Shown one piece after another: positions 28,312-51,976 of a stretch of DNA of 64,000 nucleotides. Made by a program: the position numbers and the translations under genes. Under the pieces are notes generated by a model. That model had not been told where the DNA came from, searched no databases, and saw only the letters and a list, made by a program, of their open reading frames with translations. The DNA is from Candidatus Omnitrophota bacterium. Its GTDB lineage: Bacteria > Omnitrophota > Gorgyraeia > 1-14-0-20-64-10. The DNA is taken from positions 64,066 through 128,065 of the forward strand of contig JAMWCF010000002.1 of assembly GCA_023818695.1 (NCBI GenBank). The letters are read 5' to 3'. Within the stretch, counting starts at the first letter, position 1, and each line of letters opens with the position of its first letter.

Positions 28312-29846
28312 AAAGGGATACGATGGTAATGGGCAAGGAGTCGGCCCTGCCGGTCGGCGGTAAAACCCCGCACTCCCCCGGACGGCTTCTTGAGCCGCTG
28401 CTGAACCAGCTCGGGTCCCCCGGCCGCCGCGCTTTCGTCCTGCCGGCCCTGGACGTTCCGGTCAAACCGCCGGAGACGCTGGTTCCCGCCGGGATGCTAC
28501 GGAAAACACCGGCTCCCCTGCCGGAGGTTTCCGAGAGGGATCTGGTGAAGCATTTCCTCCGACTGGCCCATTTGAATTTTTCCGGGGAGACGAATTTCTA
28601 TCCACTGGGCTCCTGCACCATGAAATACAACCCAAAAGTGAATGAGGAGATCGCCGGTCTGGCCGGCTTCGCCAAGGTGCATCCTTACACGCCCGACGAA
28701 GCGGCGCAGGGAATTCTGGAACTGCTGTGGACACTGGAGCAGCAGTTGAGAGAGATCCTCGGAATGGACGCCGTCTCCCTGCAGCCGGCCGCCGGCGCCC
28801 ATGGGGAGTTGACGGCCCTTCTGATGGCCAAGGCGTACCATGACGCCAAAGGAAGAAGCCGGCGCAAGGTTGTCGTGCCGGATTCCGCCCACGGGACCAA
28901 CCCGGCCAGCGCCGCCCTGTGCGGCTTCGAGGTGGTCGAGATCGCTTCGGACAAACGGGGCCGAATTTCCCCGGAGGTCCTGCGGTCCGTCATGGACGAG
29001 GATGTGGCGGTTTTCATGGTGACCAACCCGAACACCCTGGGACTGTTCGAGGAGCGGATCGGCGAGGTCGCCTCGATCGTTCACTCTAAAGGAGGTCTGA
29101 TGTATTTGGACGGGGCCAATATGAACGCACTCCTGGGGCTCGTTCGGCCTGGGGACATGGGATTCGACATGGTCCACGTCAACGTCCACAAAACCTTCTC
29201 CATCCCGCATGGATCGGGCGGGCCCGGAGGTGGGCCGGTGGGAGTCAAGGAGCCGCTGCGGCGGTTCCTGCCGAGCCCCATCGTAGTAAAGGAGAATGGG
29301 AGATTCCGACTTTCCTCCGCGGGTCCGGATTCCATCGGACGTGTCCGGACCTTTTTCGGTAATACCGGCGCTCTCGTGAGGGCTTTCGCCTACATCGCTT
29401 CCCTCGGCTCCGATGGGCTCAAGCGGGTGGCGGAGGGAGCGATCCTCAACGCCAACTATGTCAAGGCGCTCATCCGGGACGTTTACCCGGTGCCGGTCGA
29501 TGAGACCTGCATGCATGAATTCGTTGCCTCCGCCAAGGAACTGAAGGCCTCCTGCGGCGTCAAGGCCCTGGATATCGCCAAGCGCCTGCTGGATTACGGC
29601 TTCTACGCCCCGACCATCTATTTCCCCCTCATTGTGGAGGAGGCGCTGATGATCGAGCCGTCCGAGACGGAATCCAGGCAGGTGCTGGAAGCGTTCGCCG
29701 CCGCATTGGTTGCCATCGCAGAGGAGGCGACGTCGTATCCTCAAAAGGTCAAAGGGGCGCCCCACCGGATGCCGGTCACACGGCTGGATGAGGTGCAGGC
29801 CGCCCGCGAACCGAACCTCAAGTGGAGTCCTGGCGAATCCTCTTAG
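28308..29846 (+). CDS. gcvPB: Glycine dehydrogenase (decarboxylating) subunit 2
   Basis: ORF 28206..29846. The ATG at 28308 forms an ATGA overlap with the gcvPA stop. GSCTMKYNPK, and the PLP site NVHKTFSIPHGSGGPG. Confidence 0.9.
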   Translation: MKRDTMVMGKESALPVGGKTPHSPGRLLEPLLNQLGSPGRRAFVLPALDVPVKPPETLVPAGMLRKTPAPLPEVSERDLVKHFLRLAHLNFSGETNFYPLGSCTMKYNPKVNEEIAGLAGFAKVHPYTPDEAAQGILELLWTLEQQLREILGMDAVSLQPAAGAHGELTALLMAKAYHDAKGRSRRKVVVPDSAHGTNPASAALCGFEVVEIASDKRGRISPEVLRSVMDEDVAVFMVTNPNTLGLFEERIGEVASIVHSKGGLMYLDGANMNALLGLVRPGDMGFDMVHVNVHKTFSIPHGSGGPGGGPVGVKEPLRRFLPSPIVVKENGRFRLSSAGPDSIGRVRTFFGNTGALVRAFAYIASLGSDGLKRVAEGAILNANYVKALIRDVYPVPVDETCMHEFVASAKELKASCGVKALDIAKRLLDYGFYAPTIYFPLIVEEALMIEPSETESRQVLEAFAAALVAIAEEATSYPQKVKGAPHRMPVTRLDEVQAAREPNLKWSPGESS

Positions 29847-30424
29847 ATCCACCCGGCGATCCGGCGGCCAACATGGCCGAGGATGAAAAGCTGGCCCAGG
29901 CCGTCCGGAAAGGGGCCCCCCCTGCCTTGCGGATCTACGGTTGGGAGCGGCCAGCCGTTTCGATCGGCCGTCGGCAGAAAAAAGAGGATCTCCCCGAAGA
30001 GATCCTTTCCCAGGATCTTCCCGTGGTGCGGCGTCCCACCGGCGGAGGGATCGTCGTCCATTCCGGCCAGGAGGTTACTTATTCTCTCGCTTTCCCGCTG
30101 TGCCTTATCCCGAAAGGAGTTCGCGTCAGCGCCCTTCCCGTTTCGCTGCACCGGCAGGTGAAGGATTTGCTGGAAAATGCCTCTCCGGATCTCTCGGGGC
30201 AGCTGCGGGTGGCTCCTCGCGACGCCGGAGGGCCTTATCACCTCTGTTTCTCCGCGCCGGTGTGCGGAGACATCCTGCTGGATTCCAAAAAGGTCGCTGG
30301 CTGCGCCGTCCGGGTCTGGAAAGAGGCGGTGCTGATGCAGGGGTCCATCCAGGGGATCCCTCTGCCAGCCGGCCGATGGAGGGAGATCCTCTGCGAAGCG
30401 GTGAGGAGGACTTTCCCGGGGTGA
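29822..30424 (+). CDS. Biotin/lipoate A/B protein-ligase family protein (LplA/LipB-like, probably lipoylates GcvH)
   Basis: GTG start overlapping the gcvPB end. ANMAEDEKL, LRIYGWERPAVSIGRRQ, VVRRPTGGGIVVH and LDSKKVAGCAVR. Confidence 0.6.
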   Translation: MESWRILLDPPGDPAANMAEDEKLAQAVRKGAPPALRIYGWERPAVSIGRRQKKEDLPEEILSQDLPVVRRPTGGGIVVHSGQEVTYSLAFPLCLIPKGVRVSALPVSLHRQVKDLLENASPDLSGQLRVAPRDAGGPYHLCFSAPVCGDILLDSKKVAGCAVRVWKEAVLMQGSIQGIPLPAGRWREILCEAVRRTFPG

Positions 30425-32652
30425 ATCCGCGCCGGCTGGTTCCTTTCGTCACCGTCATTGTTCCGGTACGGAACGAGGAAGGAACGATCGGTGCCTGTCT
30501 GGAGAGTTTGGTCAAGCAGGATTATCCCTCCGGCTGTTTCGAGATCCTGGTCGTAGACAACGGTTCCATCGACCGAACGCCGGAGATCCTGCACCGCTTT
30601 CCGGTCCGGGTGGTCAGGGAACCGGTCCCTGGGGCCGCCCGGGCGCGCAACAGAGGGGCCTGCGAGGCGGCGGGGGAGATCCTGGCCTTTATCGACGCGG
30701 ACTGCACCGCCGCGTCGAACTGGTTGTCGGCTCTTATCGGCGCACTGGAGCGGGAACCGTCCGCCGCATTTGCCGGCGCCGACGTTGTTTCGGGCAGGAA
30801 ATCGGTCCTGGCCGGTTACCTGAACTGGAGGGGATTTGGTTTCTTCCGGGAAGACACCGGTTGCCCGGCTGATCCCTCGGGGGTGCCGTGGCTGATGACC
30901 GGCAATCTGGCGGTCCGGCGGGAGCCGTTTGAATCGGTCGGCGGGTTCGATGCGTCACTCCTGCCCGGCGAAGATATCGATTTTTCCTGGAGGATGCTGC
31001 TTTTGGGGTGGTATCCGGTTTTTGTCCCCGACGCCGCCGTGACCGAAAACCGGCCTTACGACGTCCGGTCCTTCTGCAGGAAAAACTTCCGGACAGGCCG
31101 CGTCTCTTTGATCCTCCAACGGCGTTTTCGCGACCTGTGGTCCGAATGGGGCATCGTTCCGGCCGGCCGCTGCAGGGACCGGGGATTCGCGGGCAAACTG
31201 GTCAGCCGGCTGAAATCGGTTTTCCCCGGAATGGCCGATCTCCTTTCCTCGCGCAGGTGGGCTTACCTCTTTCTGCTTGTTATGAGCCACCTCTGTTTCC
31301 GGTTCGGCCGGCTGGCCCAGCGTTTCAGCCGGGTTCCCGACACGACCGCCGTGCCCGCCGGATCGACCCGCTTTTTCCCCCACCCGCTCCTGCGCTGTCT
31401 GCCTTTGCAGCCGGAAGAGAAGCTGGTTTACCTCTGCGCCGTCTGGAGAGGGCAGGGAGGTGGAGATCAGGCCGTCCGCCGTCTTCTTGCCGGGATTACC
31501 GACTGGGACCGGCTCCTGCAGGGATGCGCCCGCCACAAGTTGCAACCCCGTTTTTTCGCCCTCTTGAAGCGGTGCGGTGCGCAGGCCTTTTTGCCGCCTG
31601 ATCTCTGGCGGAAGATAGAATCTTTCTGCGTTGAATCGCAGGTTTACACCTGCGCCGTCGATTCGGAGCTGACCTGGCTGCTGCCTGCTTTCCATCAAGC
31701 CGGGGTTGAGCCGATGCTTTTGAAGGGGGCGGCGCTCCAGCAGACCGTTTACCGGGGCGAGCCCGGCCGGTTTTATGTGGATCTGGATCTGATGGTCCGG
31801 GGCATCGGCCGGCGGGAGATGGTGGCTCTCATGGACCGCCTGGGGTACCGTCCGATGCCTGTCCGGTCGCCGCTGCCGAGCCGCTGGCATGAACAGGCCC
31901 TGCGGTTCGAAGAGGGCGAGGTCAGCTTTCCGTTCATTCACCAGGAAAGAGGGATCCACGTCGACCTTCATGTCGAGCCGTTTGCCGACCGGTCGCCGGT
32001 CCGCCTGCCTGCCGGATGGATCTGGCAGGAGGCGCGTTCAGCCGAAGTGGCACAGTCGCAAGCGTTTCTGCCGGAGCCGACCCGCCTTTTCACGCATATC
32101 CTGTTTCATCTGGCGAAACATGCCGCCGGTGGGGAACATCGTTTGGGCTGGTATCTCGATCTGGACGAAACAGCCCGTTTTTACGAAGGGCAATTGGACG
32201 GTCCTCTGTGCGCGCGGATCATACGGACCGCCGACCATCCGAGGATGCTCGCCCGGGTTCTGCTGTTTTTGAAGAGCCACTTCGGCACGCCGCTGCCGCC
32301 GGAGGTAGAGGGCATGATTCCGGTTTTCCAGCCGGAGCCGTTTTCCCTCCGGGATCTTTTTTATTCTCCGCGGCGGCCGGATATCGCCGGCTTCCTGCGG
32401 CCCGACTGGACGGATAGGCGGGAGACTTTTATGGTCTATGTGAGGGAAATCCCCCGATGGCCGGCTAAGATCCTGTTCGTCCTGAAGTGGGTTTTCCCGG
32501 CCCCCGCCTATCTCCGGACGAAATACCGGTCTGCCGGGATCTTCGGGATCCCCATCGGCTATGTGAGACACTGGACGGCGGTAGTGGTGAAAGCATCGGT
32601 TGTGGCAGCTTATGGATACCGGCTTTTCAAGGGCGGGAGACAGCGGCTATAA
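30421..32652 (+). CDS. Fusion protein: family-2 glycosyltransferase (N) + PF14907-type uncharacterised nucleotidyltransferase (C)
   Basis: Part of ORF 29941..32652. The likely start is the GTG at 30421 (GTGA overlap with the upstream stop) or the ATG at 30376. GT2 motifs: VTVIVPVRNEE, EILVVDNGSIDRT, AFIDADC and LLPGEDIDFSWR. C-terminal half: LLKGAALQQTVYRGEPGRFYVDLDLMV, typical of NTP_transf_5. Confidence 0.75.
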   Translation: MNPRRLVPFVTVIVPVRNEEGTIGACLESLVKQDYPSGCFEILVVDNGSIDRTPEILHRFPVRVVREPVPGAARARNRGACEAAGEILAFIDADCTAASNWLSALIGALEREPSAAFAGADVVSGRKSVLAGYLNWRGFGFFREDTGCPADPSGVPWLMTGNLAVRREPFESVGGFDASLLPGEDIDFSWRMLLLGWYPVFVPDAAVTENRPYDVRSFCRKNFRTGRVSLILQRRFRDLWSEWGIVPAGRCRDRGFAGKLVSRLKSVFPGMADLLSSRRWAYLFLLVMSHLCFRFGRLAQRFSRVPDTTAVPAGSTRFFPHPLLRCLPLQPEEKLVYLCAVWRGQGGGDQAVRRLLAGITDWDRLLQGCARHKLQPRFFALLKRCGAQAFLPPDLWRKIESFCVESQVYTCAVDSELTWLLPAFHQAGVEPMLLKGAALQQTVYRGEPGRFYVDLDLMVRGIGRREMVALMDRLGYRPMPVRSPLPSRWHEQALRFEEGEVSFPFIHQERGIHVDLHVEPFADRSPVRLPAGWIWQEARSAEVAQSQAFLPEPTRLFTHILFHLAKHAAGGEHRLGWYLDLDETARFYEGQLDGPLCARIIRTADHPRMLARVLLFLKSHFGTPLPPEVEGMIPVFQPEPFSLRDLFYSPRRPDIAGFLRPDWTDRRETFMVYVREIPRWPAKILFVLKWVFPAPAYLRTKYRSAGIFGIPIGYVRHWTAVVVKASVVAAYGYRLFKGGRQRL

Positions 32653-32662
32653 TCAAAGGCAG

Positions 32663-32953
32663 ATGAATATCGGCTCGATCCGCATACCGCAGAAGATAAT
32701 GGGCAAGAAGCTGGGGTCGGAATGGGTCCTCTTGAATCTGGACAACGGCGTTTACTACGGACTCAATGAAACCGGCAGCGTCATCTGGGATGAATTGGCC
32801 GCCGGCACCAACGGATGGGAATCGGTCGTCGGTCGCCTCGAGGGGATGTATGAAGCCGACCGGTCCGAACTGGAAAAGGACGTGAGGGAATTTCTTCGTC
32901 ACCTGCACAAAGAGAGACTGATCGAGCTTGAAGGACCTCTTCCGGAAGATTAA
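32663..32953 (+). CDS. PqqD-family RiPP recognition element (lasso peptide B1)
   Basis: ATG at 32663 within ORF 32600..32953. WVLLNLDNGVYYGLNETGSVIWDEL...DVREFLRHLHKERLIEL. Confidence 0.8.
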   Translation: MNIGSIRIPQKIMGKKLGSEWVLLNLDNGVYYGLNETGSVIWDELAAGTNGWESVVGRLEGMYEADRSELEKDVREFLRHLHKERLIELEGPLPED

Positions 32954-33371
32954 AACCGTCCGGTCCTGGCGGGCCGGCCAGCGGCGGTTGTTCATAGAGG
33001 CGTGCCTTTCTTTCTGGAAGGCGCGCTTTTTTCTTTTCACGTATGGTTCCCGCTTCGTCGAGCGTTTCGTTTCGGACGGCCGGGACGGCCGCCTTGAACC
33101 GGACTGTCCGGTGCCGGAGCTGATCCGAGCTTTCCGGACCGCCCAGCGCAATCAGCCGCTGCGGCCCACCTGTCTTGTTTCAGCCATCGCCGAAAGGATC
33201 TTTCTGGAGCGCCACGGTGTTTCGGCCCGTGTCCGGATTGGGGTCCGGAAAGAAGGGAAAGGGATTCACGCGCACGCTTGGTGTGTGGTGATGGGGCGCT
33301 CTGACGGCGGGGAGATGCAGTTCGCTCCTCTGGAGATGGCCGGTTCCCCACGGAAGGGGGAATCGCTGTGA
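32928..33371 (+). CDS. Lasso peptide leader peptidase B2 (transglutaminase-like Cys protease)
   Basis: TTG start. Catalytic-type Cys (RPTCLVSAIAERIFL) and His (GIHAHAWCVV), as in the McjB C-terminal domain. Confidence 0.8.
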   Translation: MKDLFRKIKTVRSWRAGQRRLFIEACLSFWKARFFLFTYGSRFVERFVSDGRDGRLEPDCPVPELIRAFRTAQRNQPLRPTCLVSAIAERIFLERHGVSARVRIGVRKEGKGIHAHAWCVVMGRSDGGEMQFAPLEMAGSPRKGESL

Positions 33372-35356
33372 GCGCTATCGCCGGCTTGTGTCGCTGGGAC
33401 GGAAAGCCAGTCGACCCATCGGCCGCCTTGCGGATGGTCCGCGCCATGCCACACCGCTGCCCGGACGGCGTCTCCGGCTGGGCGGATGAATCGGCCGCGC
33501 TGGCCCACGGGTTGCTGCGCTGCGGCGCGGCGGATGCCGCCGGAACGGCACCGACCGTTTCACGGGACGGGTCTACGGCTGTCACCGCCGACGCGCGGTT
33601 TGACAACCGGCAGGAACTGCTCTCGCAGTTGGCTCTTCCTGCCGGGTCGGACCTGTCGGACGGCGGGCTGATGATAGCCGCTTACAGGCGTTGGGGCGAG
33701 GAGTTCATCCGCCGCCTGGCGGGAGATTTTGCCTTTTGCCTCTGGGACCGGAGAAAGAGGATTGTCCTGTGCGGCCGGGACCATCTGGGGGTTAAGCCGT
33801 TCTACTATTACGCCGGCGGCCGGTTTTTCGCTTTTTCATCCGAGATCAAAGGGTTGTGGTCTCTTGAAGGCATTCCCCGCCGGCTCAACGAAACCCGGAT
33901 CGCCGATTACCTCCACTCCCTTTTGGAGGATGCGGAGGCGACATTCTTTCAGGAGATCCTCCGGTTGCCTCCGGCACACCTGCTCATTGTTTCCCCGTTC
34001 AAAAAGGAGCTCCGCAGGTACTGGGAGGTCCGTTCGGCGTCTCCAGTCTGCTTTCGGAACGACGCGGATTATGAAGAGGCCTTCCTTTCGGTTTTTCAGG
34101 AGGCGGTCCGGTGCCGCCTCCGCGGCGTTTCAAAGGCCGGCGTCCTCTTGAGCGGTGGGCTGGATTCCTCCGGGGTCGCCGCCGTCGCCGCTGCCTTTTT
34201 CCATGAAGAGGGAAGGGGATCCCTGCCTGTTTTTTCCGCCACCTTCGAGCAGGTCCCGGAATCGGACGAACAGGAGTTCAGCCGCCAGGTCGTGTCGGAT
34301 GGGATGCGGCTCCATCGGGTGGCGGCGGACCGGATCAGCCCGCTGGCGGATCTGGACTCGCTCCTTTTCCATCAGGACGAGCCGTTTTACGCCCCGAACC
34401 TTTTCATGCACTGGGCGCTTTTCCGAAGCGGGAGAGAGGCCGGGGTCCGGGTGATGCTGGACGGCTTGGATGGGGACACCACCGTCTGCCACGCGACCGC
34501 CCGGTTAACGGAGCTGTTGGGCAGGGGGCGGTGGACCGCTTTTATCCGGGAGAGCCGGCTTTTTGCCGGCCGGCACGACCGTCCGTTCGGCCGTGTCATC
34601 TGGGAAAAGGGTTTCCGGCCTTACTTTCTGCGGGCGGTGCATTTGGTGCGCCGTCCGAGACGCGTGGGAATGGTCGGCCATGAGCCGATCATCCATCCGG
34701 AGCTGGAAAGGAGAACCGGTTACCGGTTACGGGCTTTCCGCCTGCGGCGCGGGCGGTGGGATCCTTCGTTGAGCGTCCGGGACGAACACCACAGAAGATT
34801 GACCAGCGGGATGATTCCGTTCGTCCTCGAGGTGGCGGATCGGACGGCCGCCCCCTTTTGCCTCGAGGCGCGCTATCCGTTCTTCGACAAGAGGGTGGTC
34901 GAGTTCTGTTATGGGCTGCCTTCCGGGCAGAAATTCCTCCAGGGATGGACCCGCTCCATTGAACGGAGGGCCTTCACCAGAGTGTTGCCGGCGCCGGTTT
35001 GTTGGCGGGCTAAAAAGGGGAACCTCGGTCCCAATTTCGACCGAGCTCTGGCGAAATTTGAGAGGCAGAGAGTGAATCGTCTTATAATGGGAAAAATAGA
35101 GGTGTTGGAACCGTATGTTTCAATGGAGGTCCTCCGGCGCGTTGGCAGGCGTTTTCTGGATTCCGGATCCAGTCTTGACGCCATGGGCGTCTGGAAGGCG
35201 CTGACGCTGGGTTTGTGGTTGGAACGGTTCCATGGCGGAGGGTCACCGGACATAAAAGAGGAGGCCACACAATGGACAAAAAAAGAGAAAACCCAAGCCG
35301 GGATAGCCAGCAGGCAGACAAGGCAGAGCGGAGAACTTACACGCCACCCCGCCTGA
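33368..35356 (+). CDS. Asparagine-synthetase-like lasso peptide cyclase (C)
   Basis: GTGA overlap with B2. The N-terminus is MSAIAG, so Cys2 is replaced by Ser and no glutaminase nucleophile is present. PP-loop LLSGGLDSS. The last 85 nt overlap the precursor ORF in another frame. Confidence 0.85.
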   Translation: MSAIAGLCRWDGKPVDPSAALRMVRAMPHRCPDGVSGWADESAALAHGLLRCGAADAAGTAPTVSRDGSTAVTADARFDNRQELLSQLALPAGSDLSDGGLMIAAYRRWGEEFIRRLAGDFAFCLWDRRKRIVLCGRDHLGVKPFYYYAGGRFFAFSSEIKGLWSLEGIPRRLNETRIADYLHSLLEDAEATFFQEILRLPPAHLLIVSPFKKELRRYWEVRSASPVCFRNDADYEEAFLSVFQEAVRCRLRGVSKAGVLLSGGLDSSGVAAVAAAFFHEEGRGSLPVFSATFEQVPESDEQEFSRQVVSDGMRLHRVAADRISPLADLDSLLFHQDEPFYAPNLFMHWALFRSGREAGVRVMLDGLDGDTTVCHATARLTELLGRGRWTAFIRESRLFAGRHDRPFGRVIWEKGFRPYFLRAVHLVRRPRRVGMVGHEPIIHPELERRTGYRLRAFRLRRGRWDPSLSVRDEHHRRLTSGMIPFVLEVADRTAAPFCLEARYPFFDKRVVEFCYGLPSGQKFLQGWTRSIERRAFTRVLPAPVCWRAKKGNLGPNFDRALAKFERQRVNRLIMGKIEVLEPYVSMEVLRRVGRRFLDSGSSLDAMGVWKALTLGLWLERFHGGGSPDIKEEATQWTKKEKTQAGIASRQTRQSGELTRHPA

Positions 35357-35436
35357 CAAAACACGGATCAGTCAAAAAGCTGACCCGGATGTTGGGAGGA
35401 CTGCAGCCGGACGGATACACCGGCGACCCCTCTTGA
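35272..35436 (+). CDS. Lasso peptide precursor (A), 54 aa: MDKKRENPSRDSQQADKAERRTYTPPRLTKHGSVKKLTR / MLGGLQPDGYTGDPS
   Basis: Internal ATG of ORF 35215..35436, preceded by AAGAGGAGG 8 nt upstream. Leader motif Y-x-x-P-x-L-x-x-x-G-x5-T (YTPPRLTKHGSVKKLT) with Thr at -2. Predicted core has Asp at position 8 and a C-terminal Ser. Lies between the cyclase and kinase genes. Confidence 0.75.
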   Translation: MDKKRENPSRDSQQADKAERRTYTPPRLTKHGSVKKLTRMLGGLQPDGYTGDPS

Positions 35437-35465
35437 GCCGGTAGGGCGGGAGGTCTCGCCGCGCC

Positions 35466-36377
35466 ATGCGCCGGTTTCGTTATTCCCTTTATGGATTGGT
35501 GATTGACACCAACATTTCCTTCGCCGGTTTGGCACGCGCCGACGGGGAAGCGGATGTCGTGATCCGGTTCGGAACGCTTGATCGTTTGCCCTCTGCCGGG
35601 CGCCGACGTCCGTACGCCGTTTCTTTCTCCGGGCATGAAGCGCTCATCGGCTGGAAGGGGATCGGCCGGTTTCATGTCATGGGCGGCCGTCATGTGCTGG
35701 TTGATTCCGATCCGGGCGTTTATCCGCCGCTGCTTCAGCAGGTAATCGTGGGGTCGGTGATGGGAATCGTCCTGCATCAACGGCGTCTGCTGGTCCTTCA
35801 CGCCAGCGCCGTTGCCTTGGGAAACGAAGCGGTCCTTTTCCTCGGCGGCAAGGGATGGGGGAAATCGACCCTCGCGGCCTTCATGGTTTCCAAGGGGGCC
35901 GACCTGGTTGCGGATGATGTGGCGGCGGTTGATTGGAGGGACGGTCGGCCCGTGGTCCTGCGGGGTAACCTCCAGTTGCGGCTTTGGCCGGACGCCCTGT
36001 CGGCTCTGGGAGAGTCGCCGGCCGGCTTTCAGAAAGCGGTTCCATCGCAGGAAAAGAGGATCTGTCCCCCCCGTTCTTTTTTGGAGAGGACATTTTCCCC
36101 CATCCGCCGCATCTACCTGCTGCAGAAGAGCCGCCGGATTCGGGTTGAAAAAATAGCCGCCGCCGGTGCCGCCATCGAATTGATCCGCCATTCCTACCGG
36201 GTCGAATGGCTGCACGACGCCGATCCCTCCGTCCACTTTTCACGGTGCACCGATCTGGCTTCCTCCGTCGCCGTCAGGCGGCTGCTGCGTCCGCTGGATT
36301 TCAGTCGTCTCGATGAAATTTATTCCGAGGTGAAAACCGATTGCTTCGAAGAGACCGCCGCGGGGCAGGTTGCCTGA
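35466..36377 (+). CDS. HPr-kinase-like serine kinase (lasso peptide tail kinase type)
   Basis: LLVLHASAVALGNEAVLFLGGKGWGKSTLAAFMVSKGADLVADDV matches the HprK C-terminal P-loop domain. Genomic context of a lasso cluster. Confidence 0.75.
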   Translation: MRRFRYSLYGLVIDTNISFAGLARADGEADVVIRFGTLDRLPSAGRRRPYAVSFSGHEALIGWKGIGRFHVMGGRHVLVDSDPGVYPPLLQQVIVGSVMGIVLHQRRLLVLHASAVALGNEAVLFLGGKGWGKSTLAAFMVSKGADLVADDVAAVDWRDGRPVVLRGNLQLRLWPDALSALGESPAGFQKAVPSQEKRICPPRSFLERTFSPIRRIYLLQKSRRIRVEKIAAAGAAIELIRHSYRVEWLHDADPSVHFSRCTDLASSVAVRRLLRPLDFSRLDEIYSEVKTDCFEETAAGQVA

Positions 36378-37606
36378 TGGGGCTTCTTGTCGTTATTCCC
36401 ACCTGGCACTTGACCTACCACCTGTGGCTTTACCGTTGTCTCCGGCGGCTGCAGCCCCACATTTCCATCGCGGCGGCCTGCACGCCGGGGGATCCTCAAT
36501 GGAGTGCCGGCTTTCGGACAGTCAACCTGGATGAGCCGGCCCCGCTGTGGGAAAGAGCGCTGCGAAGGACAGGCATTCCTGGGGATCTTTTTCAACCGGT
36601 TCGCCAACGCCGGCTTGAGCAGGCGGTCCGGGACAGCTCGGTGGACGCCGTTCTCATCCATTTTCTCGATTTCGCCCTTAAATTTTCCCCTGTATGGGAA
36701 CAAACCGGCAAGCCGATTTTCGTCCATTGTCACGGGCCCATGGACATCAACATCGATTTTCGCGACCACCGCCAGCCGGACCAGACGGCTCTACGGGAGG
36801 GGTACCGGGATGCGGTGGTCCGTTTCTCGAAGAGGGTGGTCCTGATCGCGAATTCTCATTGGACCGCCGGCTGTTTAACCAAGATGGGAGCCCCGTCTGA
36901 TCGGATCGTCGTCAAACATCTGGGGGTGCCTGTTCCGGACAGGCCGCCCGTTCGAAAGGGTGACTCCAACGGTTTGAACATTCTGTACCTCAACCAGCTG
37001 GTGGATTGGAAGGGGCCTGACCGGACCATTCAGGCGTTTGAGCTGGCCTGCAGCCGAGGTCTTGACGGGACATTGACCATCGCCGGGGACGGTCCTTTGA
37101 GGCCGATGTGCGAATTGACGGCTGCCAGGTCCCCCTATGCCAGCCGGATCCGGCTGGCGGGCGAGGTCGGTCCGGCGGATGCCGATCGGCTTCGTGCGCA
37201 GGCCGATTGCTTCACCGCGCACCACTGCGAGGGTGAGATTTCTCACGCCCAGGAGGCTTTCGGCGTTTCCGTCGTGGAGGCGATGGCCGCCGCCCTGCCG
37301 GTCGTCACGGGCCGCAGCGGGGCGTTGTCGGAAACCGTGGAACACGGCCGGACCGGCTGGTTGGTGGAACCAGGGGATATCGAGGCCCACGCGGATGCCC
37401 TTCTGCGTCTCTCCAGGGATCCGGCGCTGCGGTCATCAATGGGTGAGGCGGGATGGTTGCAGGCAAAAGAGCGTTTCAGTTTGGAGGGTGAGGTGGAAAA
37501 ACTTTTGGGCATCATTTATCCCTCCGCCCGATCTGAAAGGGCGGTGGGAGGAGATAGACAGGCCGTCGCGGCCGGATATCCGGAGCCGGCAAGGAGAAAG
37601 CTGTGA
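36377..37606 (+). CDS. Family-1 (GT4-type) glycosyltransferase
   Basis: The ATG at 36377 overlaps the kinase stop (TGATG). EAFGVSVVEAMAAALPVVTGRSGALSETVEHGRTGWLVEPGD is the E-x7-E region. Confidence 0.8.
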   Translation: MGLLVVIPTWHLTYHLWLYRCLRRLQPHISIAAACTPGDPQWSAGFRTVNLDEPAPLWERALRRTGIPGDLFQPVRQRRLEQAVRDSSVDAVLIHFLDFALKFSPVWEQTGKPIFVHCHGPMDINIDFRDHRQPDQTALREGYRDAVVRFSKRVVLIANSHWTAGCLTKMGAPSDRIVVKHLGVPVPDRPPVRKGDSNGLNILYLNQLVDWKGPDRTIQAFELACSRGLDGTLTIAGDGPLRPMCELTAARSPYASRIRLAGEVGPADADRLRAQADCFTAHHCEGEISHAQEAFGVSVVEAMAAALPVVTGRSGALSETVEHGRTGWLVEPGDIEAHADALLRLSRDPALRSSMGEAGWLQAKERFSLEGEVEKLLGIIYPSARSERAVGGDRQAVAAGYPEPARRKL

Positions 37607-38448
37607 AGCTCGGATTCCTCAAGCCCCTGGCCAGGATATGGGCGGCCACCCCCATCGGCCGTCGGCACAAAGCGTTCCTTCTTTCTTCTCTGGCGACCCG
37701 GGATGAGTTGGTGCGGGCTCTGCTTAAGCGGGATCCCAACTACTGCGTCCGGGCTCTGTTTTGGAATTACTTCTATTCCTCGACGTTCCGTAACGCGCTC
37801 AAGAACGGAAGCTATCCGGATCCGCCGGTCGTCCGGGGATTCGAGGACCTCACATGGCTTTTCGCGAGCCACTACGCCAATATGGGGATCGCCCTTTTGA
37901 ACCTCGATGAAGCGGCCTACCTTTACCGGCTCGCCGGGTCCCTCCGGCAGGCCAGACTCGCCGAGATCGGCCGGTACAAGGGAGGGTCTACATTTCTCCT
38001 GGCGGCCGCAATCGATGAGGGGTCGACCCTTCTGTCCGTTGATAACCATTCGGAGGGAGTTGTCCACGACTTGAAAGAGCAGGATGAATCCTTAAAGCGG
38101 ATCCTGGAGATCTTCCGTTTGGACGGAAAAGTCGATCTGGTCGTGGGGGATTCAACCGGCGTCCGCGTCGATCCGGAATCGATCGATCTCCTCTTTATCG
38201 ATGGCGACCATCGCTACGAATCGGTTCGCAGGGACTACCATCATTGGAAGGAGGCGTTGAAGCCGGGCGGGCACCTGCTCTTTCACGACGCCGACAACTC
38301 CCGGCCTTTTTCTATAGGGGATTGCCCACTTGGCGCGGTCGATTTCATGCGGGACATGAGAGAAACGGAAAGCAGGTTCTTTACGAGGACGAAGACGGTC
38401 GGTTCGCTCGTCCATTTCGTCCGGACCACCGTGCCGTTTGCAAGATAA
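37603..38448 (+). CDS. Class I SAM-dependent methyltransferase (Methyltransf_24-like)
   Basis: GTGA overlap with AAGGAG upstream. LAEIGRYKGGSTFLLA, LLFIDGDHRYESVRRDYHHW and LKPGGHLLFHD. Confidence 0.7.
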   Translation: MKLGFLKPLARIWAATPIGRRHKAFLLSSLATRDELVRALLKRDPNYCVRALFWNYFYSSTFRNALKNGSYPDPPVVRGFEDLTWLFASHYANMGIALLNLDEAAYLYRLAGSLRQARLAEIGRYKGGSTFLLAAAIDEGSTLLSVDNHSEGVVHDLKEQDESLKRILEIFRLDGKVDLVVGDSTGVRVDPESIDLLFIDGDHRYESVRRDYHHWKEALKPGGHLLFHDADNSRPFSIGDCPLGAVDFMRDMRETESRFFTRTKTVGSLVHFVRTTVPFAR

Positions 38449-38645
38449 AAGCAAGTGCCGAGGCGGGGAGTTGGCGCCCTCCGCTTGTCCGCCGATAACC
38501 CCGGCGGACTCGCTTCGGGTCGGCCATCCGCCGCTCCTAAGGTAAGCAACGGCTCCTGTTTGTCGCCGTTGCCTACATTGTCCGCCATAGGTGGACGGTC
38601 GCGGCTTCCTTCAACTCCCCTTCCTCTTGGGGAGGGGGGTATAGT

Positions 38646-38669
38646 GGGGGGAACGTTACAGTTCCCCCC
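38646..38669. repeat. G-rich perfect hairpin GGGGGGAAC-gttaca-GTTCCCCCC
   Basis: 9-bp perfect stem. Preceded by CCTTCCTCTTGGGGAGGGGGGTAT, which resembles the leader of the copies at 50.46 and 51.79 kb. Confidence 0.7.
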
Positions 38670-38718
38670 AATAAGACATAGGGCGCCGATTTTGGCGCCC
38701 CCTTAGGAAAGAGGAATA

Positions 38719-38748
38719 CTAGGGAGAAAACCTAGGTTTTCTCCCTAG
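38719..38748. repeat. 30-nt perfect palindrome CTAGGGAGAAAACCTAGGTTTTCTCCCTAG
   Basis: The sequence equals its own reverse complement (checked by hand). Arm core is GGGAGAAAACC. Confidence 0.7.
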
Positions 38749-38843
38749 ATACTTCCAAAGTTCCCCTGTTGGTTTGGTGAGGCCGTTAAGCCGGGAGGCA
38801 CAGGACCTTTGTTAAATGACAGATGGGAACTTCGGAAGTATAG

Positions 38844-38927
<84 letters not shown>

Positions 38928-38939
38928 AAAAGAAGATTA

Positions 38940-39860
38940 ATGGCGACGAAACAGGATAACAGAAAGCGTTTGACCGCGTCAATCCGCCAGGGATTGGGAG
39001 CGGTCCGGGTCACGCAATTGAACCAGCTGATGGCCGGCCGCTCCGCGGTCGAAGGGAACTGGTCCTTGACGCCCCGGCATGAGATCCTCTACACCCGGTC
39101 CGGCGATAGGGAGGAGGCGGTTCTCCGGGGACGTCTGGCAGGCGCAGAGCCGGACGCCCTTCTTTTCCTGGTGAGCCAGACGCAGGAAGGGCAGCGCACG
39201 GAAACCCGCACGGTCCGGCTGCAGGGCCGTTGGGAAGCCGACCCCCTCAATCGGCTCGCCTTCCTTGTCGAGCGGGAAGAGGGGCGTTATGACCGTCTCA
39301 CGCTCGAGGGGATGTGGGAGGTCAACGACGCCCATCGGCTGATTTACCGCTCCGTCAGCCGTCCGGATTCGGGAAAGAGATCGACCGTGACCACCCTGAC
39401 TTTTCAAGGGGTTTGGGATATCGACGCTTCCAAGCGATTGGTCTATCTGCTGGATGCGGACGGGACATCCGGTTTCCGGTTCCGGGGCGCTTTTCAGACC
39501 CCCTCCATCCTGGCCAAGGAAGGTCGGATCCGCTACCAGGTCGGCATCGAGCTCAACGGCAAGCGCCGGTTTCAGACCGTCACCCTTTTCGGAAAATGGA
39601 AATTTTCCCGTGATTTGGCCCTTGAATTCGAGATGGACTACGGCAAGGGACGGAAGCGATCGATCCGGTTCGGCGCCGCGTACGAAGTCGGGCACCGCGG
39701 TTTCATCACGGCCCGGCTCATGAGCCGGGAGGGAAGACCTTTGGGGGTGGAGGTGGTTTTCGGCCTGGATCAGGTGTCGGCGGGGGGTCGGTTGTTCGGC
39801 CGATGGAGAAAATCCGGCAAGGAGACCACGGTGGAAGCCGGAGCCCGATGGCCGTGGTAG
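38940..39860 (+). CDS. Hypothetical repeat protein with about 5 tandem G-x-W beta modules
   Basis: Recurring module: LQGRWEADPLNRLAFLVE, LEGMWEVNDAHRLIYRSV, FQGVWDIDASKRLVYLLD, LFGKWKFSRDLALEFEMD. This internal periodicity favours the + ORF over the antisense 38979..39953 ORF. Confidence 0.55.
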   Translation: MATKQDNRKRLTASIRQGLGAVRVTQLNQLMAGRSAVEGNWSLTPRHEILYTRSGDREEAVLRGRLAGAEPDALLFLVSQTQEGQRTETRTVRLQGRWEADPLNRLAFLVEREEGRYDRLTLEGMWEVNDAHRLIYRSVSRPDSGKRSTVTTLTFQGVWDIDASKRLVYLLDADGTSGFRFRGAFQTPSILAKEGRIRYQVGIELNGKRRFQTVTLFGKWKFSRDLALEFEMDYGKGRKRSIRFGAAYEVGHRGFITARLMSREGRPLGVEVVFGLDQVSAGGRLFGRWRKSGKETTVEAGARWPW

Positions 39861-41971: not shown

Positions 41972-42376
41972 GGGGGCGACTGGATTCGACTGAACTGACG
42001 AAACCGTGGTCGCGTGCCGAGGTTGTCCGGAGGCCTCGTAAAAAACCGGGCAAACAATACGTGCCAAAAACATGGTAAATGGGTTCGCCCCGGTTGTGCC
42101 GATTCGGCCGATCGCGGCCCCCATGGCACTGGCCGCGTAAATTACGCGCCCGTCCGTTGATCGACGCCTACTAGGTTAAACGGACGACAGCAGTAGGCTG
42201 GCCGTGGTTTGGTTCCTCTAGGGACCGCGGCGAGGAGACCAACTAGGGGGTAGCCGGCGGCGTGATCCCGTCCGCGGGAGCCGCGGCTGGCGACGTTTCG
42301 AAAACGCGGACTACGCACGTAGTGGACGCGGTGGAGTTATTTCAGGACGGGGGTTCAATTCCCCCCGCCTCCACCA
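41972..42376 (+). ncRNA. ssrA: tmRNA (ssrA), one-piece
   Basis: 5' GGGGGCGACTGGATTCGAC and 3' GGACGGGGGTTCAATTCCCCCCGCCTCCACCA, giving a 7-bp acceptor stem with a G3-U pair. Internal tag reading frame ends ...PMALAA-TAA (stop at 42138-42140). The resume codon is not certain; GCC AAA AAC (AKN...) is possible. Confidence 0.9.
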
Positions 42377-42525
42377 GCTTGTGGGGAATTGAACCCAGGG
42401 GTGGTCAGGGGGACCGCCCCTGACGGGTTCAAGGAGGGGAAGAATAAGGGGAACCATAGGTTCCCCTTATGGAGCGACGAGCGGAAGCGAGGAGCGACGG
42501 GTTCTACTTCCCCCCGCCTCCACCA
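42359..42525 (+). repeat. 18-nt direct repeat of the tmRNA 3' end (TTCCCCCCGCCTCCACCA at 42359-42376 and 42508-42525) bracketing a 131-bp insert
   Basis: Exact 18/18 identity read from the sequence. The insert contains two strong hairpins and an internal GGAGCGACG duplication. Confidence 0.8.
42444..42470. repeat. G-rich perfect hairpin ATAAGGGGAAC-catag-GTTCCCCTTAT
   Basis: 11-bp perfect stem located inside the tmRNA-flanking insert. Confidence 0.7.
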
Positions 42526-42540
42526 CTTAGGGTCCCCTCA

Positions 42541-43353
42541 TTGGAAAACGGCTCTCATCCTGATAAGACGCAAGCGATAGGTGTTTTTGATTCCGGGCTG
42601 GGGGGGCTGACCGTGGTCCGGGAGCTCTTTAAGACGCTTCCGCGCGAGCGGATCGTTTACCTGGGCGACACGGCGCGGGTCCCTTACGGGAACAAATCCA
42701 AGGAAACAGTCCTCCGGTTTTCGACGGAGAACGTCCTCTTCCTGCTCCACCATCGCGTGAAAATGGTGATTGTGGCCTGCCATACCGCTTCCAGCTTCGG
42801 TCTGCCGTTTTTAAGCCGCCATTTCAAGCACCCTGTTCTGGGAGTGGTGGAACCGGGCGTCGAGACGGCGGTGAAGGCGACTCGTTCGGGCCGGATCGGC
42901 GTGATCGGCACGAATTCCACCATCGGATCAGGCGCTTACCTGCATGCCATCCGGCGCCTGCAGCCGTCCATCAAGGTTTTTCAGGCGGCCTGCCCCTTGT
43001 TCGTTCCCCTGGTGGAGGAGGGATTGGTGGATGATCCGCTGACCCGCCAGGCGGCGGTCCGTTATTTGAAGCCTTTGAAGGAAGCCCGCGTCGATACTCT
43101 GATCCTGGGATGCACCCATTATCCCCTCTTGAAAAAGGTGATCGGACAGGTGATGGGGCCCCGCGTGCGGTTGGTCGATTCCGCTCATCAGGTGGCTTTG
43201 AAAGCCCGGCAGATTTTGCTTCAGCTCGGTTTGGAAAACGGCAAAACGGCCGGCAGGAGCCACAGGTTCTACGTGACGGATGAGCCGGCGCTTTTCGGTC
43301 GGCTTTCCAGACGATTCCTTGGTTCCCGGGTTGGCCATGTCGAGAAAGTCTAA
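42541..43353 (+). CDS. murI: Glutamate racemase
   Basis: IGVFDSGLGGLTV, VIVACHTASS and LILGCTHYPLL. The ORF opens at ATG 42469, but that start lies inside the tmRNA-flanking insert. The TTG at 42541 gives a normal-length N-terminus, so the start is uncertain. Confidence 0.8.
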   Translation: MENGSHPDKTQAIGVFDSGLGGLTVVRELFKTLPRERIVYLGDTARVPYGNKSKETVLRFSTENVLFLLHHRVKMVIVACHTASSFGLPFLSRHFKHPVLGVVEPGVETAVKATRSGRIGVIGTNSTIGSGAYLHAIRRLQPSIKVFQAACPLFVPLVEEGLVDDPLTRQAAVRYLKPLKEARVDTLILGCTHYPLLKKVIGQVMGPRVRLVDSAHQVALKARQILLQLGLENGKTAGRSHRFYVTDEPALFGRLSRRFLGSRVGHVEKV

Positions 43354-50447: not shown

Positions 50448-50473
50448 TAACTTCTCCTTAGAAAAGGGGGTAT

Positions 50474-50502
50474 ATCGGGGGGAATGTAAAATTCCCCCCG
50501 AT
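50474..50502. repeat. G-rich perfect hairpin ATCGGGGGGAAT-gtaaa-ATTCCCCCCGAT
   Basis: 12-bp perfect stem 27 nt after tRNA-Pro, preceded by TAACTTCTCCTTAGAAAAGGGGGTAT. The 3' arm shares AATTCCCCCCG with the tmRNA T-arm. Confidence 0.75.
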
Positions 50503-50534
50503 CGCACCGATAGCATTTGCCGGATGGGGGAGTC

Positions 50535-50569
50535 CTGAGGGGGAAACCAGGCAGCGGTTTTCCCCTCAG
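50535..50569. repeat. G-rich hairpin CTGAGGGGGAAACC-aggcagc-GGTTTTCCCCTCAG
   Basis: 14-bp stem with one G-T pair, located between tRNA-Pro and tRNA-Arg. Confidence 0.7.
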
Positions 50570-50619
50570 AATGAGCCGCGGCAGAAGTGGGCTTAACGGG
50601 CTGACAAAAGTGGCTCATT

Positions 50620-51836: not shown

Positions 51837-51846
51837 TAGTCCTCAT

Positions 51847-51921
51847 GGTGGGTGTAGCTCAGCTGGTTAGAGCACGAGATTGTGGATCTCGGGGTCGCGG
51901 GTTCGAGCCCCGTCACCCACC
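51847..51921 (+). tRNA. tRNA-His (anticodon GTG) with encoded G-1; CCA follows at 51922-51924
   Basis: G-GTGGGTG-TA-GCTC..GAGC-A-CGAGA-TTGTGGA-TCTCG-GGGTC-GCGGG-TTCGAGC-CCCGT-CACCCAC-C cloverleaf. Confidence 0.9.
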
Positions 51922-51931
51922 CCATCTATTA

Positions 51932-51976
51932 CCCTCATGCGAACCGTGCCACAAGGATTCGCATGAGGGCTTTTTT
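51932..51976 (+). terminator. Rho-independent terminator after tRNA-His
   Basis: CCCTCATGCGAA-(14-nt loop)-TTCGCATGAGGG (12-bp perfect stem) followed by CTTTTTTC. Confidence 0.7.

Follow-up and report, generated by a model that had tools for sequence, protein, structure and literature searches.

Copies of the 3' end of a tRNA gene are routinely taken as footprints of integrases and are used to delimit genomic islands. A scheme for the sublocation of att sites within tRNA and tmRNA genes was reportedly set out by Williams in 2002. In Escherichia coli, the distal repeats of the tyrT operon, to which the names rtT RNA (rttR) and tpr and the Rfam family RF00391 belong, were reportedly treated by Egan and Landy in 1978 and by Rossi et al. 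in 1981; to our knowledge, they have stood unexplained since the late 1970s. In the K-12 genome (NC_000913.3), the tyrTV array had a period of 178 bp and 3.1 (3.14) copies, and its unit began with the last 19 nt of tRNA-Tyr, the break lying in the T-loop. The annotated rttR (positions 1067-1237 of our locus L032) started 7 nt after tyrV, ended at the copied CCA, and thus spanned exactly one unit. The passages of PMC3318445 and PMC2965389 that cite Bosl and Kersten (1991) name rtT among the processed products of the tyrT operon. Among genomic islands, some published examples are mobilizable in cis and have no integrase, such as those at ssrA of Dehalococcoides (PMC3146451).

We investigated a copied tRNA end in a 64-kb window (the whole stretch of DNA analysed, 64,000 nt) from Candidatus Omnitrophota. 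An earlier note on this DNA had described a 20-nt repeat of the 3' end of tRNA-Leu around a single insert of 368 bp, and had compared it with the att sites left by integrases. We found that the insert has two parts, a distal module (38454-38620) and a proximal hairpin block (38621-38841), and that a module of the same design stands behind the tmRNA gene 3.5 kb away. The features of the tRNA-Leu locus are as follows.

37603-38448, plus strand: Methyltransf_24 gene (Pfam), the last gene of the lasso-peptide cluster
38454-38473, minus strand: distal 20-nt direct copy, the 3' end of the module
38474-38609, minus strand: module body, 136 nt, aligned with L020/L027
38610-38620, minus strand: T-loop and 3' strand of the T-stem, copied in inverted orientation, reading GGGGAGUUGAA in the tRNA sense, the 5' end of the conserved module
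38621-38841, minus strand: proximal hairpin block, 221 bp, with terminator- or REP-like hairpins, separating the tRNA from the module
38842-38861, minus strand: gene-proximal 20-nt direct copy, the 3' end of tRNA-Leu
38843-38927, minus strand: tRNA-Leu(CAG), functional gene (ARAGORN)

The direct repeat was confirmed by our search of the window. The 20-mer AGTGCCGAGGCGGGGAGTTG occurred in exactly two copies, and no third was present in the 64 kb even when 3 mismatches were allowed (shuffled sequences gave an expectation of 0 matches). Rfam also recognized the gene (RF00005, 38844-38927, 47.3 bits); its body was identical to the tRNA-Leu of the relatives L004 and L005, and its CCA was not encoded, the gene reading ...GGCACU. 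Given the placement by ARAGORN and Rfam, the right copy spans part of the T-loop through to trailer bases: 5 nt of the T-loop (CAACU), the 3' strands of the T-stem and of the acceptor stem, the discriminator, and 1-2 trailer bases (CU). The distal copy lay 5 nt from the stop codon (ending at 38448) of the convergent methyltransferase gene. The lasso-peptide cluster spans 30.4-38.45 kb, and no third att copy was found in the window at its far end; the stop codon of LplA overlaps the start of the next gene there (GTGA, 30421-30424), which leaves no room for one. In an independent Logan assembly (L003, SRR27730035), a single contig of identical sequence contained the lasso genes, both copies of the repeat and the entire insert, so the insert is not an artefact of the assembly of this MAG. 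Open reading frames of 83, 101, and 48 aa overlap the segment (the last one basic, at 38381-38527 on the minus strand). None of them was conserved in the homologous unit of L020, and therefore the earlier statement that the segment holds no credible ORF stands.

The idea of one 368-bp insert did not hold. The distal 167 bp alone were common to another lineage (L020/L027), while the hairpin block has so far been seen in the genome of the window only and is replaced by 12 nt in L020 and L027. The apparent insert of 368 bp results from this block, which separates the module from its tRNA. The three perfect hairpins that had been listed were all found, at 38646-38669 (9-bp arms), at 38681-38700 (7-bp arms), and as a 30-nt palindrome at 38719-38748. 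That inventory was incomplete: it had missed a 17-bp stem of the block (arms 38749-38765/38825-38841) and the inverted copy at 38610-38620. The block further contained an imperfect enclosing stem (38621-38639/38698-38716), and its predicted fold reached -106.3 kcal/mol (z = -9.9). On the minus strand, the hairpins 38748-38719 and 38701-38680 had T-rich tails and scored as terminator-like. The hairpin at 38646-38669 resembled another at 50475-50499 behind tRNA-Pro; hairpins of this family (GGGGAAY...RTTCCCC) occurred 3 times in the 64-kb window, all in the trailers of tRNA-type genes.

Considering these hairpins, the segment might be read as a shared terminator or 3'-UTR of the convergent lasso operon and tRNA-Leu, with the 20-nt repeat as an incidental product of slippage. 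The position between convergent transcription units agrees with such a reading, and so do the two terminator-like hairpins on the tRNA strand and the hairpin family in the trailers. However, it accounts for 38621-38841 only. The exact 20-mer and the 11-mer inverted copy are left unaccounted for, as are the unit of L020/L027, where the neighbouring operon is reversed, and the module behind tmRNA. We therefore considered this explanation very improbable, and for 38454-38620 it is largely refuted.

Read in the tRNA sense, the module opens with a short spacer, which is followed by the T-loop and T-stem in inverted form. Next come ~110-136 nt of GC-rich hairpins, and the closing element is a direct copy, 18-21 nt long and beginning within the T-loop, of the 3' end of the gene. 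We propose that the module is a non-coding unit of ~150-170 bp, assembled from the sequence of the tRNA-type gene behind which it lies, and in the orientation of that gene. In the window, the inverted copy behind tRNA-Leu was exact (11/11), with 0.10 matches expected window-wide and 2 matches in none of 100 shuffles. The body contained a central hairpin (38539-38553/38565-38579) whose loop GCGACAAACAGGAGC is conserved, a further conserved stretch (UGGCCGACC), another strong hairpin, and a GGCGC adjoining the repeat. The predicted fold of the module on the tRNA strand had -92.1 kcal/mol (z = -7.4), and only one unit was present (1.05 periods).

A homologous unit was found behind tRNA-Leu(CAG) in L020 (Omnitrophica CG11 MAG), which belongs to a distant lineage (its SmpB was only 61% identical to that of the window). 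Its direct repeat measured 21 nt and its inverted copy 14 nt, the latter exact (14/14) in both L020 and L027. In L027, which is from the same population, the period was 166 with 2.2 copies, that is, two tandem 166-bp units that differed by 3 SNPs; the single unit of L020, against two in L027, could be an assembly collapse. No terminator-like site was found between the tRNA and the units in L027. The L020 unit also folded on the tRNA strand (z = -3.2). In L020/L027, the operon next to the module ran the opposite way, and the neighbouring gene in L020 was ScmC-like. Between the bodies of the window module and L020, the likeness consisted of short collinear motifs and shared helices (local alignment, p = 0.054), and nhmmer with the module bodies alone gave no match.

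The covariance analysis that had been suggested should homologues exist was possible with these units. Between the window module and L020/L027, 12 of 46 pairs were changed on both sides, compared with 4.4 +/- 1.7 in shuffles (0/500 reached the observed count) and 0-3 in slid-alignment controls, a count that represents effectively two independent lineages and a structure derived from the same alignment. In the central hairpin, 5 of 8 pairs were compensatory. Searches of the units against the window and 49 loci with blastn and nhmmer returned orthologous units only. The scan of JGI metagenomes yielded L027 and one unrelated hairpin (L026), the GTDB scan with the 306-aa neighbour protein gave no relatives, and walks along the ScmC-like and methyltransferase neighbour genes gave no further tRNA-linked units.

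The second module of the window was built from tmRNA sequence, with a period of 149 bp.

41972-42376, plus strand: tmRNA gene (ARAGORN and Rfam)
42359-42376, plus strand: proximal copy of the tmRNA module, the last 18 nt of the tmRNA gene
42383-42396, plus strand: inverted T-arm copy GGGGAATTGAACCC, 14/14 exact against 42351-42364, 6 nt after the gene
42397-42507, plus strand: tmRNA module body, with two strong hairpins and GGAGCGACG twice
42508-42525, plus strand: distal direct copy TTCCCCCCGCCTCCACCA of the last 18 nt of tmRNA, 18/18 exact, 0.01 expected

The two GGAGCGACG stood 20 nt apart next to the repeat, and a degenerate T-arm preceded the distal copy (ACGGGTTCTACTT vs ACGGGGGTTCAATT). 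The predicted fold of the 150-nt unit had -80.5 kcal/mol (z = -5.6). The module was also present in the Logan contig L001 and was absent behind the tmRNA of L004, L027, L028, and L029. Homology of its body to the tRNA-Leu bodies was not significant (p = 0.12-0.31).

Empty sites, for which the earlier note had recommended a search, were found. In L004, L005, L006, and L028, none of which is close to the window organism, tRNA-Leu abutted the neighbouring gene, with neither a direct nor an inverted copy. L028 was the empty counterpart of L020/L027, with the same ScmC-like gene starting 13 nt from the end of the tRNA. In L004 and L005, LplA abutted tRNA-Leu and the lasso cluster was missing between them; in L006, another lasso cluster ended 8 nt from tRNA-Leu. 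Compared with these relatives, the bracketed DNA is an insertion. The distribution of the tRNA-Leu module was patchy: the window and the most distant relative have it and closer ones do not, so that several losses or independent gains are needed. Among 26 tRNA and tmRNA genes compared, the direct and inverted copies were either present together, in 4 independent cases (tRNA-Leu of the window, tmRNA of the window, L020/L027, and E. coli tyrT), or both absent, in 15 genes. Different RiPP or glycosyltransferase clusters flanked tRNA-Leu in different relatives.

These empty sites, together with the patchy distribution, bring back the possibility of an integrase. A tyrosine or serine integrase crossing over in the T-loop may have inserted one element into tRNA-Leu and another into tmRNA, each element supplying a replacement 3' end while the displaced original end became the distal copy. 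The remnant would then be a CIME-like or miniature non-autonomous element, mostly two att arms and possibly mobilisable in trans, and the expected attP would be ...GGAGGGCGC-CAACTCCCCGCCTCGGCACT-ATACTTCC..., with the ends of the module as the P and P' arms. The repeats run from the interior of the T-loop to the 3' end of a tRNA and a tmRNA, which are classical targets, the same geometry has a published precedent, and the perfect repeats are as recent events would give. The tandem units of L027 and the differing RiPP and glycosyltransferase clusters beside tRNA-Leu also agree with an integrase. So does the first base of the repeat, which is genome-specific and the same in both copies (AGTG in the window, TGTG in L020). 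At the tmRNA gene, the degenerate 5' arm of the T-stem before the distal copy is like a core-type site, and the paired GGAGCGACG are like arm-type sites.

However, no unit contained an integrase, an excisionase, or any coding capacity, and the search for integrases that had been proposed gave no recombinase or transposase Pfam match among 35 long ORFs from the 64-kb window. Recombination would have to act on a circle of 146-166 bp, which is a very small substrate. Three independent units were nearly equal in size and internal order, unlike the outcome of random deletion from larger islands. The arms of the inverted T-arm copy lay 18-20 bp from their partners, too far for the core of a tyrosine recombinase, and we know of no description of an inverted T-arm copy as a feature of att sites or att scars. 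In viral contigs, the tRNA-Leu junction, the tmRNA junction, and the core of the 30-nt palindrome gave zero matches or three chance ones in coding sequence, and blastn of the insert against phage and plasmid collections gave no match. The junction scan of GTDB (185,579 species representatives) gave 18 matches, about as many as estimated by chance (~13 for an 18-mer in 596 Gb). Only L020 was genuine, and no island with the junction was found; of the other 17, 15 had no tRNA in the locus, one had tRNA-Pro, and one had an unrelated tRNA-Leu(GAG) ~2 kb off. Thus the att reading of the earlier note keeps the extent of the repeat and the empty sites in its favour, while the integrase and attP were not found and an inverted copy is not known from att scars. 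It is not the best-supported explanation, and we regard an integrase scar as a serious rival, though less likely than not.

A neutral origin was also weighed, in which a tandem duplicate of the whole tRNA-Leu with ~80 nt of spacer decayed into a functionless pseudo-tRNA that has not yet been deleted, with the 20-nt repeat as its best-preserved part. The best local match of the first 24 nt of the tRNA in the unit was collinear (distance to the repeat 63 vs 63 nt in the window, 65 vs 66-67 in L020; p = 0.083 and 0.036), and a banded collinear alignment gave 40/66 identities (p = 0.061 and 0.035). The L020 unit kept, in order, the 5' strand of the acceptor (GCCGAGG, 7/7), a D-loop-like CUGGCCGAC, and a variable-arm-like GCCGAAGGCC, and tyrT-tyrV of E. 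coli is an example of tandem tRNA genes coexisting with such units. On the other hand, under neutral decay, 20/20 identity does not drop abruptly to near-random sequence, nor do compensatory helices and an exact inverted copy persist between lineages as far apart as these (SmpB, above). Within the units, no tRNA was recognised by ARAGORN or by the Rfam tRNA model, even with matches up to E <= 10 admitted, and a free global alignment of the tRNA to the unit was not significant. The tmRNA unit falls far short of the length of tmRNA and is therefore not a duplicate of the whole gene. A decayed, functionless relic is thus improbable in our view.

Several other candidates were tried and rejected. 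A MITE does not fit, since no target-site duplication lies beside the inverted pair; in addition, that pair consists of target sequence, the adjoining bases differ, and no dispersed copies were present in the window or the 49 loci. A retron was rejected as no reverse-transcriptase match was found in the scanned ORFs of the window, the neighbour in L020 being ScmC-like. A group II intron or a hammerhead has the wrong size, and no core motifs were seen on reading the sequence. As for tRNA pseudogenes, ARAGORN and Rfam recognised no cloverleaf beyond those of the functional genes.

Our preferred explanation, to which we give an even chance, is that the repeat closes a tRNA-trailer module of the rtT type, which is gained, lost, and amplified as a whole through its terminal repeat. 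Such a module probably goes back to a duplication of the tRNA gene and its spacer; what remains in the unit of the acceptor, D-arm, and variable arm, in collinear order, is suggestive only. The copy number of units would change by recombination or slippage between the direct copies. Where no terminator intervenes, as in L027, the module would be transcribed together with the tRNA as a structured trailer, in which the fold may be closed by pairing of the inverted with the direct copy, and the 3' terminus of the RNA may be set by the copied end of the tRNA, as in rtT. By analogy with rtT of E. coli, the module has a putative role as an RNA. In the window, predicted terminator-like hairpins separate the module from the tRNA, which speaks against a trailer RNA; transcription from the tRNA promoter probably stops at them before reaching the module. 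A trailer RNA maintained over a long time also fits the perfect repeat (20/20) and inverted copy (11/11) less well than does a young or DNA-level feature. The trailer module gives no account of how the inverted copy arose.

A bolder hypothesis, which we consider unlikely, is that an undescribed process writes non-coding modules behind tRNA-type genes, using the T-arm of each gene as template and leaving one inverted and one direct copy each time. Two perfect modules lie no more than 4 kb apart, and none of the relatives examined has the tmRNA one; module writing therefore appears to have been recently active in this lineage. The RNA of such a module, with a scaffold, 3' 18-20 nt identical to the host gene, and a segment complementary to the T-arm, could be a guide or bridge for a recombinase or nuclease acting in trans; if true, this would also explain the tyrT repeats of E. 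coli.

As far as the compared sequences indicate, there is a second kind of tRNA-end copy besides the integrase footprint, namely a gene-less unit of ~150-170 bp that always comes with an inverted T-arm copy and that stands, in this uncultured phylum, behind a tRNA as well as behind tmRNA. If this is general, tools for finding islands would mis-call such units, and rtT would be one member of a widespread class and not an enterobacterial oddity. The class could then be defined by a rule (3' end, inverted T-arm, 100-140 nt, direct copy of the 3' end), and experiments in E. coli could then address how it arose and what it does.

Three kinds of known elements are comparable with the modules. T-loop att-site duplications of tRNA and tmRNA genes, such as those of the ssrA islands of Dehalococcoides (PMC3146451), share with them an 18-21-nt copy of the 3' end that starts in the T-loop and a regenerated gene; empty sites in relatives and possible tandem arrangement are further likenesses. 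In contrast, att islands are kilobases long while the DNA here is gene-less and of 131-368 bp, with no cognate integrase or attP found, the inverted T-arm copy always present, and a conserved order. REP/BIME elements and intrinsic terminators resemble the block 38621-38841, with its perfect GC-rich hairpins, some of them T-tailed and one belonging to a repeat family. However, this likeness concerns the proximal 221 bp only, the family occurs in trailers of tRNA-type genes only, 3 times in 64 kb, and no RAYT or other transposase was seen in the window.

The closest likeness is to the tyrT units of E. coli. No match to RF00391 was obtained at E <= 10 in 38300-39000 of the window or at E <= 5 in 1650-2150 of L027, and Rfam at gathering thresholds recovered only the tRNA and tmRNA in the whole window, matches in the insert and L027 at looser E values being noise. 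The likeness to rtT is therefore one of architecture and not of homology. The systems differ in the host phylum (Omnitrophota) and in the genes concerned, tRNA-Leu(CAG) and tmRNA. The inverted copy comes 59 nt after the gene in E. coli, in contrast to 6-13 nt in the tmRNA module and in L020/L027; only one tRNA-Leu unit is present in the window, 221 bp away from its tRNA; and no conserved tpr-like ORF is present in the Omnitrophota modules. In both, nevertheless, the unit stands directly behind a tRNA, in the same orientation, and ends in a copy of the 3' end (19 nt in E. coli, 20 in the window, 21 in L020/L027). The inverted T-arm copy of E. coli is exact over 10/10 nt (22 nt at 86%) and lies 91 nt upstream of the direct copy, compared with 115-137 nt in Omnitrophota. 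An internal GC hairpin is shared, and in the minimum free energy structure of the E. coli unit a closing helix like that of the module leaves an 8-nt 3' tail. The tandem arrangement of E. coli, with its period of 178, has a counterpart in L027 (period 166); the tmRNA module has a period of 149, and the window has one tRNA-Leu unit.

A search bore out the duplication of the tRNA-Leu end claimed in the earlier note: the 20-mer AGTGCCGAGGCGGGGAGTTG was found at 38454-38473 and 38842-38861, and no further site existed in the whole 64-kb window even with up to 3 mismatches tolerated (shuffles gave 0 matches). The three perfect hairpins which that note had placed in the insert were all found there as well. 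The right-hand features are as follows.

38843/4-38927, minus strand: tRNA-Leu(CAG)
38842-38861: right repeat copy, comprising 5 T-loop bases, the T-stem 3' strand, the acceptor-stem 3' strand, the discriminator and 2 trailer bases

The position of the gene therefore makes the right copy run from within the T-loop to 2 bases of the trailer. In an independent Logan assembly, both copies, the entire insert and the lasso genes were on a single contig, identical in sequence to the window. Two Logan contigs of the source samples (L001 at 1-42 and L003 at 7240-7306) break within tRNA-Leu with an overlap of only 11 nt (window 38898-38908), so that continuity through the tRNA depends on the MAG contig and on conserved gene order in relatives; the likely cause of the break is an identical tRNA common to other community members.

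The source organism is a Candidatus Omnitrophica MAG. Left of tRNA-Leu lies a lasso-peptide cluster (PqqD, transglutaminase-like protease, Asn-synthase-like cyclase, HPr-kinase/ScmC-like protein, glycosyltransferases and methyltransferase), and right of it are genes for a 306-aa protein, an HD-GYP protein, SmpB and tmRNA. The closest relatives found, L004 and L005 (identities of 71% for SmpB and 53% for the 306-aa protein), share the order GcvT-H-P1-P2-LplA, convergent tRNA-Leu(CAG) and 285-aa homologue; the tRNA body is identical to that of the window, LplA directly adjoins its 3' end, and there is no lasso cluster. Another relative, L006, has a different lasso cluster ending 8 nt from the tRNA end. 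Because the flank content differs among these three loci, the entire 30.4-38.8 kb is variable DNA behind tRNA-Leu. A third repeat copy was absent from the far end of this stretch. The LplA stop overlaps the start of the next gene (GTG start; GTGA at 30421-30424). Relative to L004 and L005, the lasso-peptide and glycosyltransferase cluster (29822-38448) is an insertion between LplA and tRNA-Leu, and different RiPP, ScmC or glycosyltransferase clusters, in either orientation, flank tRNA-Leu in L006, L020/L027 and L028. Elsewhere in the window, a single 3409-aa ORF (6-10235) starts almost at the window start, and defence-type genes directly follow the tRNA-Pro/Arg/His cluster; no copy of the tRNA-His end was present in the window.

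51845-63341: defence-type run with DUF6933, a Schlafen/AlbA_2 protein and a KAP-family NTPase (1112 aa)
59162-60469: type I restriction-modification specificity subunit (Methylase_S)
57600-59165 and 60462-63341: two large adjacent ORFs

GTDB species representatives (596 Gb) were scanned for the tRNA end followed by a non-T-loop base. The 18 matches approximate the number estimated by chance for an 18-mer in 596 Gb, and only one of them, in another Omnitrophica MAG (L020), adjoins tRNA-Leu(CAG) in the arrangement sought. Its tRNA-end copy is 21 nt long and 166 bp away from the gene, and the 146 bp between its copies align with the left part of the window insert at five places.

Place 1: GCGCC adjoining the repeat
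Place 2: block TGGCCGACC
Place 3: hairpin with conserved loop GCGAC(A/G)A(A/G)CAGGAGC, in which 5 stem pairs differ on both sides
Place 4: AAGG(A/G)AG
Place 5: inverted T-loop/T-stem copy, 14/14 in L020 and 11/11 in the window (38610-38620)

A JGI contig (L027) with flanks identical to L020, and thus of the same population, contains two tandem 166-bp units with 3 SNPs between them. L028 is the empty counterpart: its tRNA-Leu sits between the ScmC-like gene and the 286-aa gene, SmpB and tmRNA that also flank it in L020/L027, 13 nt separate the tRNA end from the start of the ScmC-like gene, and copies are absent. The alignment with L020/L027 and the empty L028 thus define 38454-38620 as a conserved module. 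A very basic 48-aa ORF (38381-38527, minus strand) begins within the module, 7 nt after an AGGAG, and crosses the distal repeat.

The fold of the window unit on the tRNA strand was predicted at -92.1 kcal/mol (z = -7.4) and that of L020 at -81.4 (z = -3.2), with weaker z-scores on the opposite strand (-5.1 and -2.0, respectively). In a three-sequence alignment, 12 of 46 pairs were changed on both sides versus 4.4 +/- 1.7 in shuffles (0/500), a count in which only two lineages are truly independent and which uses a structure derived from that very alignment; a slid-partner control gave 0-3 such pairs. The insert is composite: the 221 bp at 38621-38841 occupy the place of 12 nt in L020 and fold as a chain of hairpins (z = -9.9), two of which score as terminators on the tRNA strand. 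One of its hairpins, GGGGGTATAGTGGGGGGAAC...GTTCCCCCC, has a near-twin behind tRNA-Pro (50466-50502) and a relative within the tmRNA trailer, and these three places are the only ones in the window with the GGGGAAY...RTTCCCC hairpin. The tRNA-Pro/tRNA-Arg spacer (50448-50618) contains a hairpin GGGGGGAAT...ATTCCCCCC and, at ~50533-50571, a second one with a 23-nt loop, whose stem reuses GTCCTGAG...CTCAG of the tRNA-Pro T-arm and is further T-arm-derived sequence in a tRNA trailer.

Each tRNA-type gene of the window was tested for a recurrence of its end. For tmRNA, the last 18 nt (42359-42376) are repeated at 42508-42525 (0.01 matches expected), an inverted copy of its T-arm (14/14) lies at 42383-42396, 6 nt past the gene, and hairpins make up the 111 nt that separate the inverted copy from the direct one (unit z = -5.6); a degenerate T-arm precedes the distal copy. 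This unit is also present in Logan contig L001 and is absent behind the tmRNA of L004, L027, L028 and L029. Its body has no significant sequence similarity to the tRNA-Leu bodies; the two modules share a design, and each duplicates sequence of the gene that it follows. As called, the racemase ORF (42469-43353) overlaps the unit; since the conserved IGVFDSG motif lies further on, the true start of the ORF is probably past 42525. In the gene calls of L004 and L028, an amidase (Amidase_3) gene missing from the window lies between ssrA and the racemase gene. MITE-like elements of ~160 bp with terminal inverted repeats GTCATTGCGAG...CTCGCAATGAC occur in L004 (~7810-7978 and 11340-11500), in the tRNA-Leu/285-aa gene interval and behind tmRNA, and L029 has a related copy behind its tmRNA (~5920-6010).

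Upstream of the distal copy of the tRNA-Leu end, 66 nt hold remnants collinear with the tRNA, namely GCCGAGG (acceptor strand, 7/7), D-loop-like CUGGCCGAC and variable-arm-like GCCGAAGGCC in L020 and GAGCGGCGGA-UGGCCGAC in the window; the best local tRNA match is spaced from the repeat exactly as in the tRNA, and banded alignment of the unit with the tRNA gave p = 0.035-0.061. These similarities suggest that the unit could be a decayed duplicate of the whole tRNA gene, which would however not explain why identity drops abruptly from perfect to near-random, why an inverted copy exists and how the tmRNA unit arose.

The earlier note had compared the duplication with the att-site signature of integrase-mediated insertion and had named a decayed island, a non-autonomous element or a structured RNA as candidates; we regard an integration scar as rather unlikely, although part of the note's interpretation stood. 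The repeat extent is that expected of a T-loop att site, the distribution is patchy, and empty sites exist, as L028 and the tRNA end abutting LplA in L004 and L005 confirmed. Dehalococcoides ssrA islands, including tandem arrays and integrase-less members, offer the same geometry (PMC3146451). The repeats are perfect although terminator-like hairpins probably cut the window module off from the tRNA promoter. Moreover, the tRNA-end variant of each unit-bearing genome is present in both its repeat copies, and the first repeat base varies between genomes while being identical in both copies within each. The CCA end is encoded in L004 (7622-7626) and L005 (7845-7849), and not in the window (38842-38846, ACU) or L020 (ACA). 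On the other hand, the units have no coding capacity, their size and internal order are uniform across independent cases, and the inverted copy is present every time; no recombinase turned up among 35 long ORFs checked in the window, and searches for an attP-type junction in viral contigs, and with exact matching in other genomes, gave none. Within the end of the tRNA-overlapping LplA call of L004 (7601-7631), 11 nt of the tRNA-Leu 3' end are present twice (AGTGGTGCCGA, 20 nt apart), perhaps a last remnant of a unit since deleted.

The E. coli tyrT operon ends in 178-bp repeats, each carrying the last 19 nt of tRNA-Tyr. On NC_000913.3 we found this array with a period of 178 x 3.1, overlapping the tyrV 3' end. 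The copied tRNA end breaks within the T-loop, and each unit has an internal GC hairpin and an exact 10-nt inverted T-arm copy (22 nt at 86%), 91 nt from the direct copy; the predicted MFE structure is closed by an inverted:direct helix with an 8-nt 3' tail. The annotated rttR RNA starts 7 nt past tyrV and ends at the copied CCA, and so spans exactly one unit. When 26 tRNA/tmRNA genes were surveyed over 450 nt downstream for direct copies of 14 nt or more and inverted copies of 10 nt or more, both occurred together in 4 independent cases, and neither was found at the other 15 genes. The window's 48-aa ORF recalls the small tpr ORF of the E. coli unit, but is not conserved in L020. The best description of the tRNA-Leu feature is an rtT-type tRNA-trailer module together with a hairpin block observed in the window genome alone, with a sister module behind tmRNA. 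The Omnitrophota module is not a sequence member of the Rfam RtT family and is thus a variant of a known design. Its interest lies in how such modules form, in the role of the inverted copy and in the apparent generality of the design (two phyla, three kinds of gene); the Omnitrophota and E. coli units share the same layout of inverted T-arm copy, hairpin body and direct copy of the gene end.
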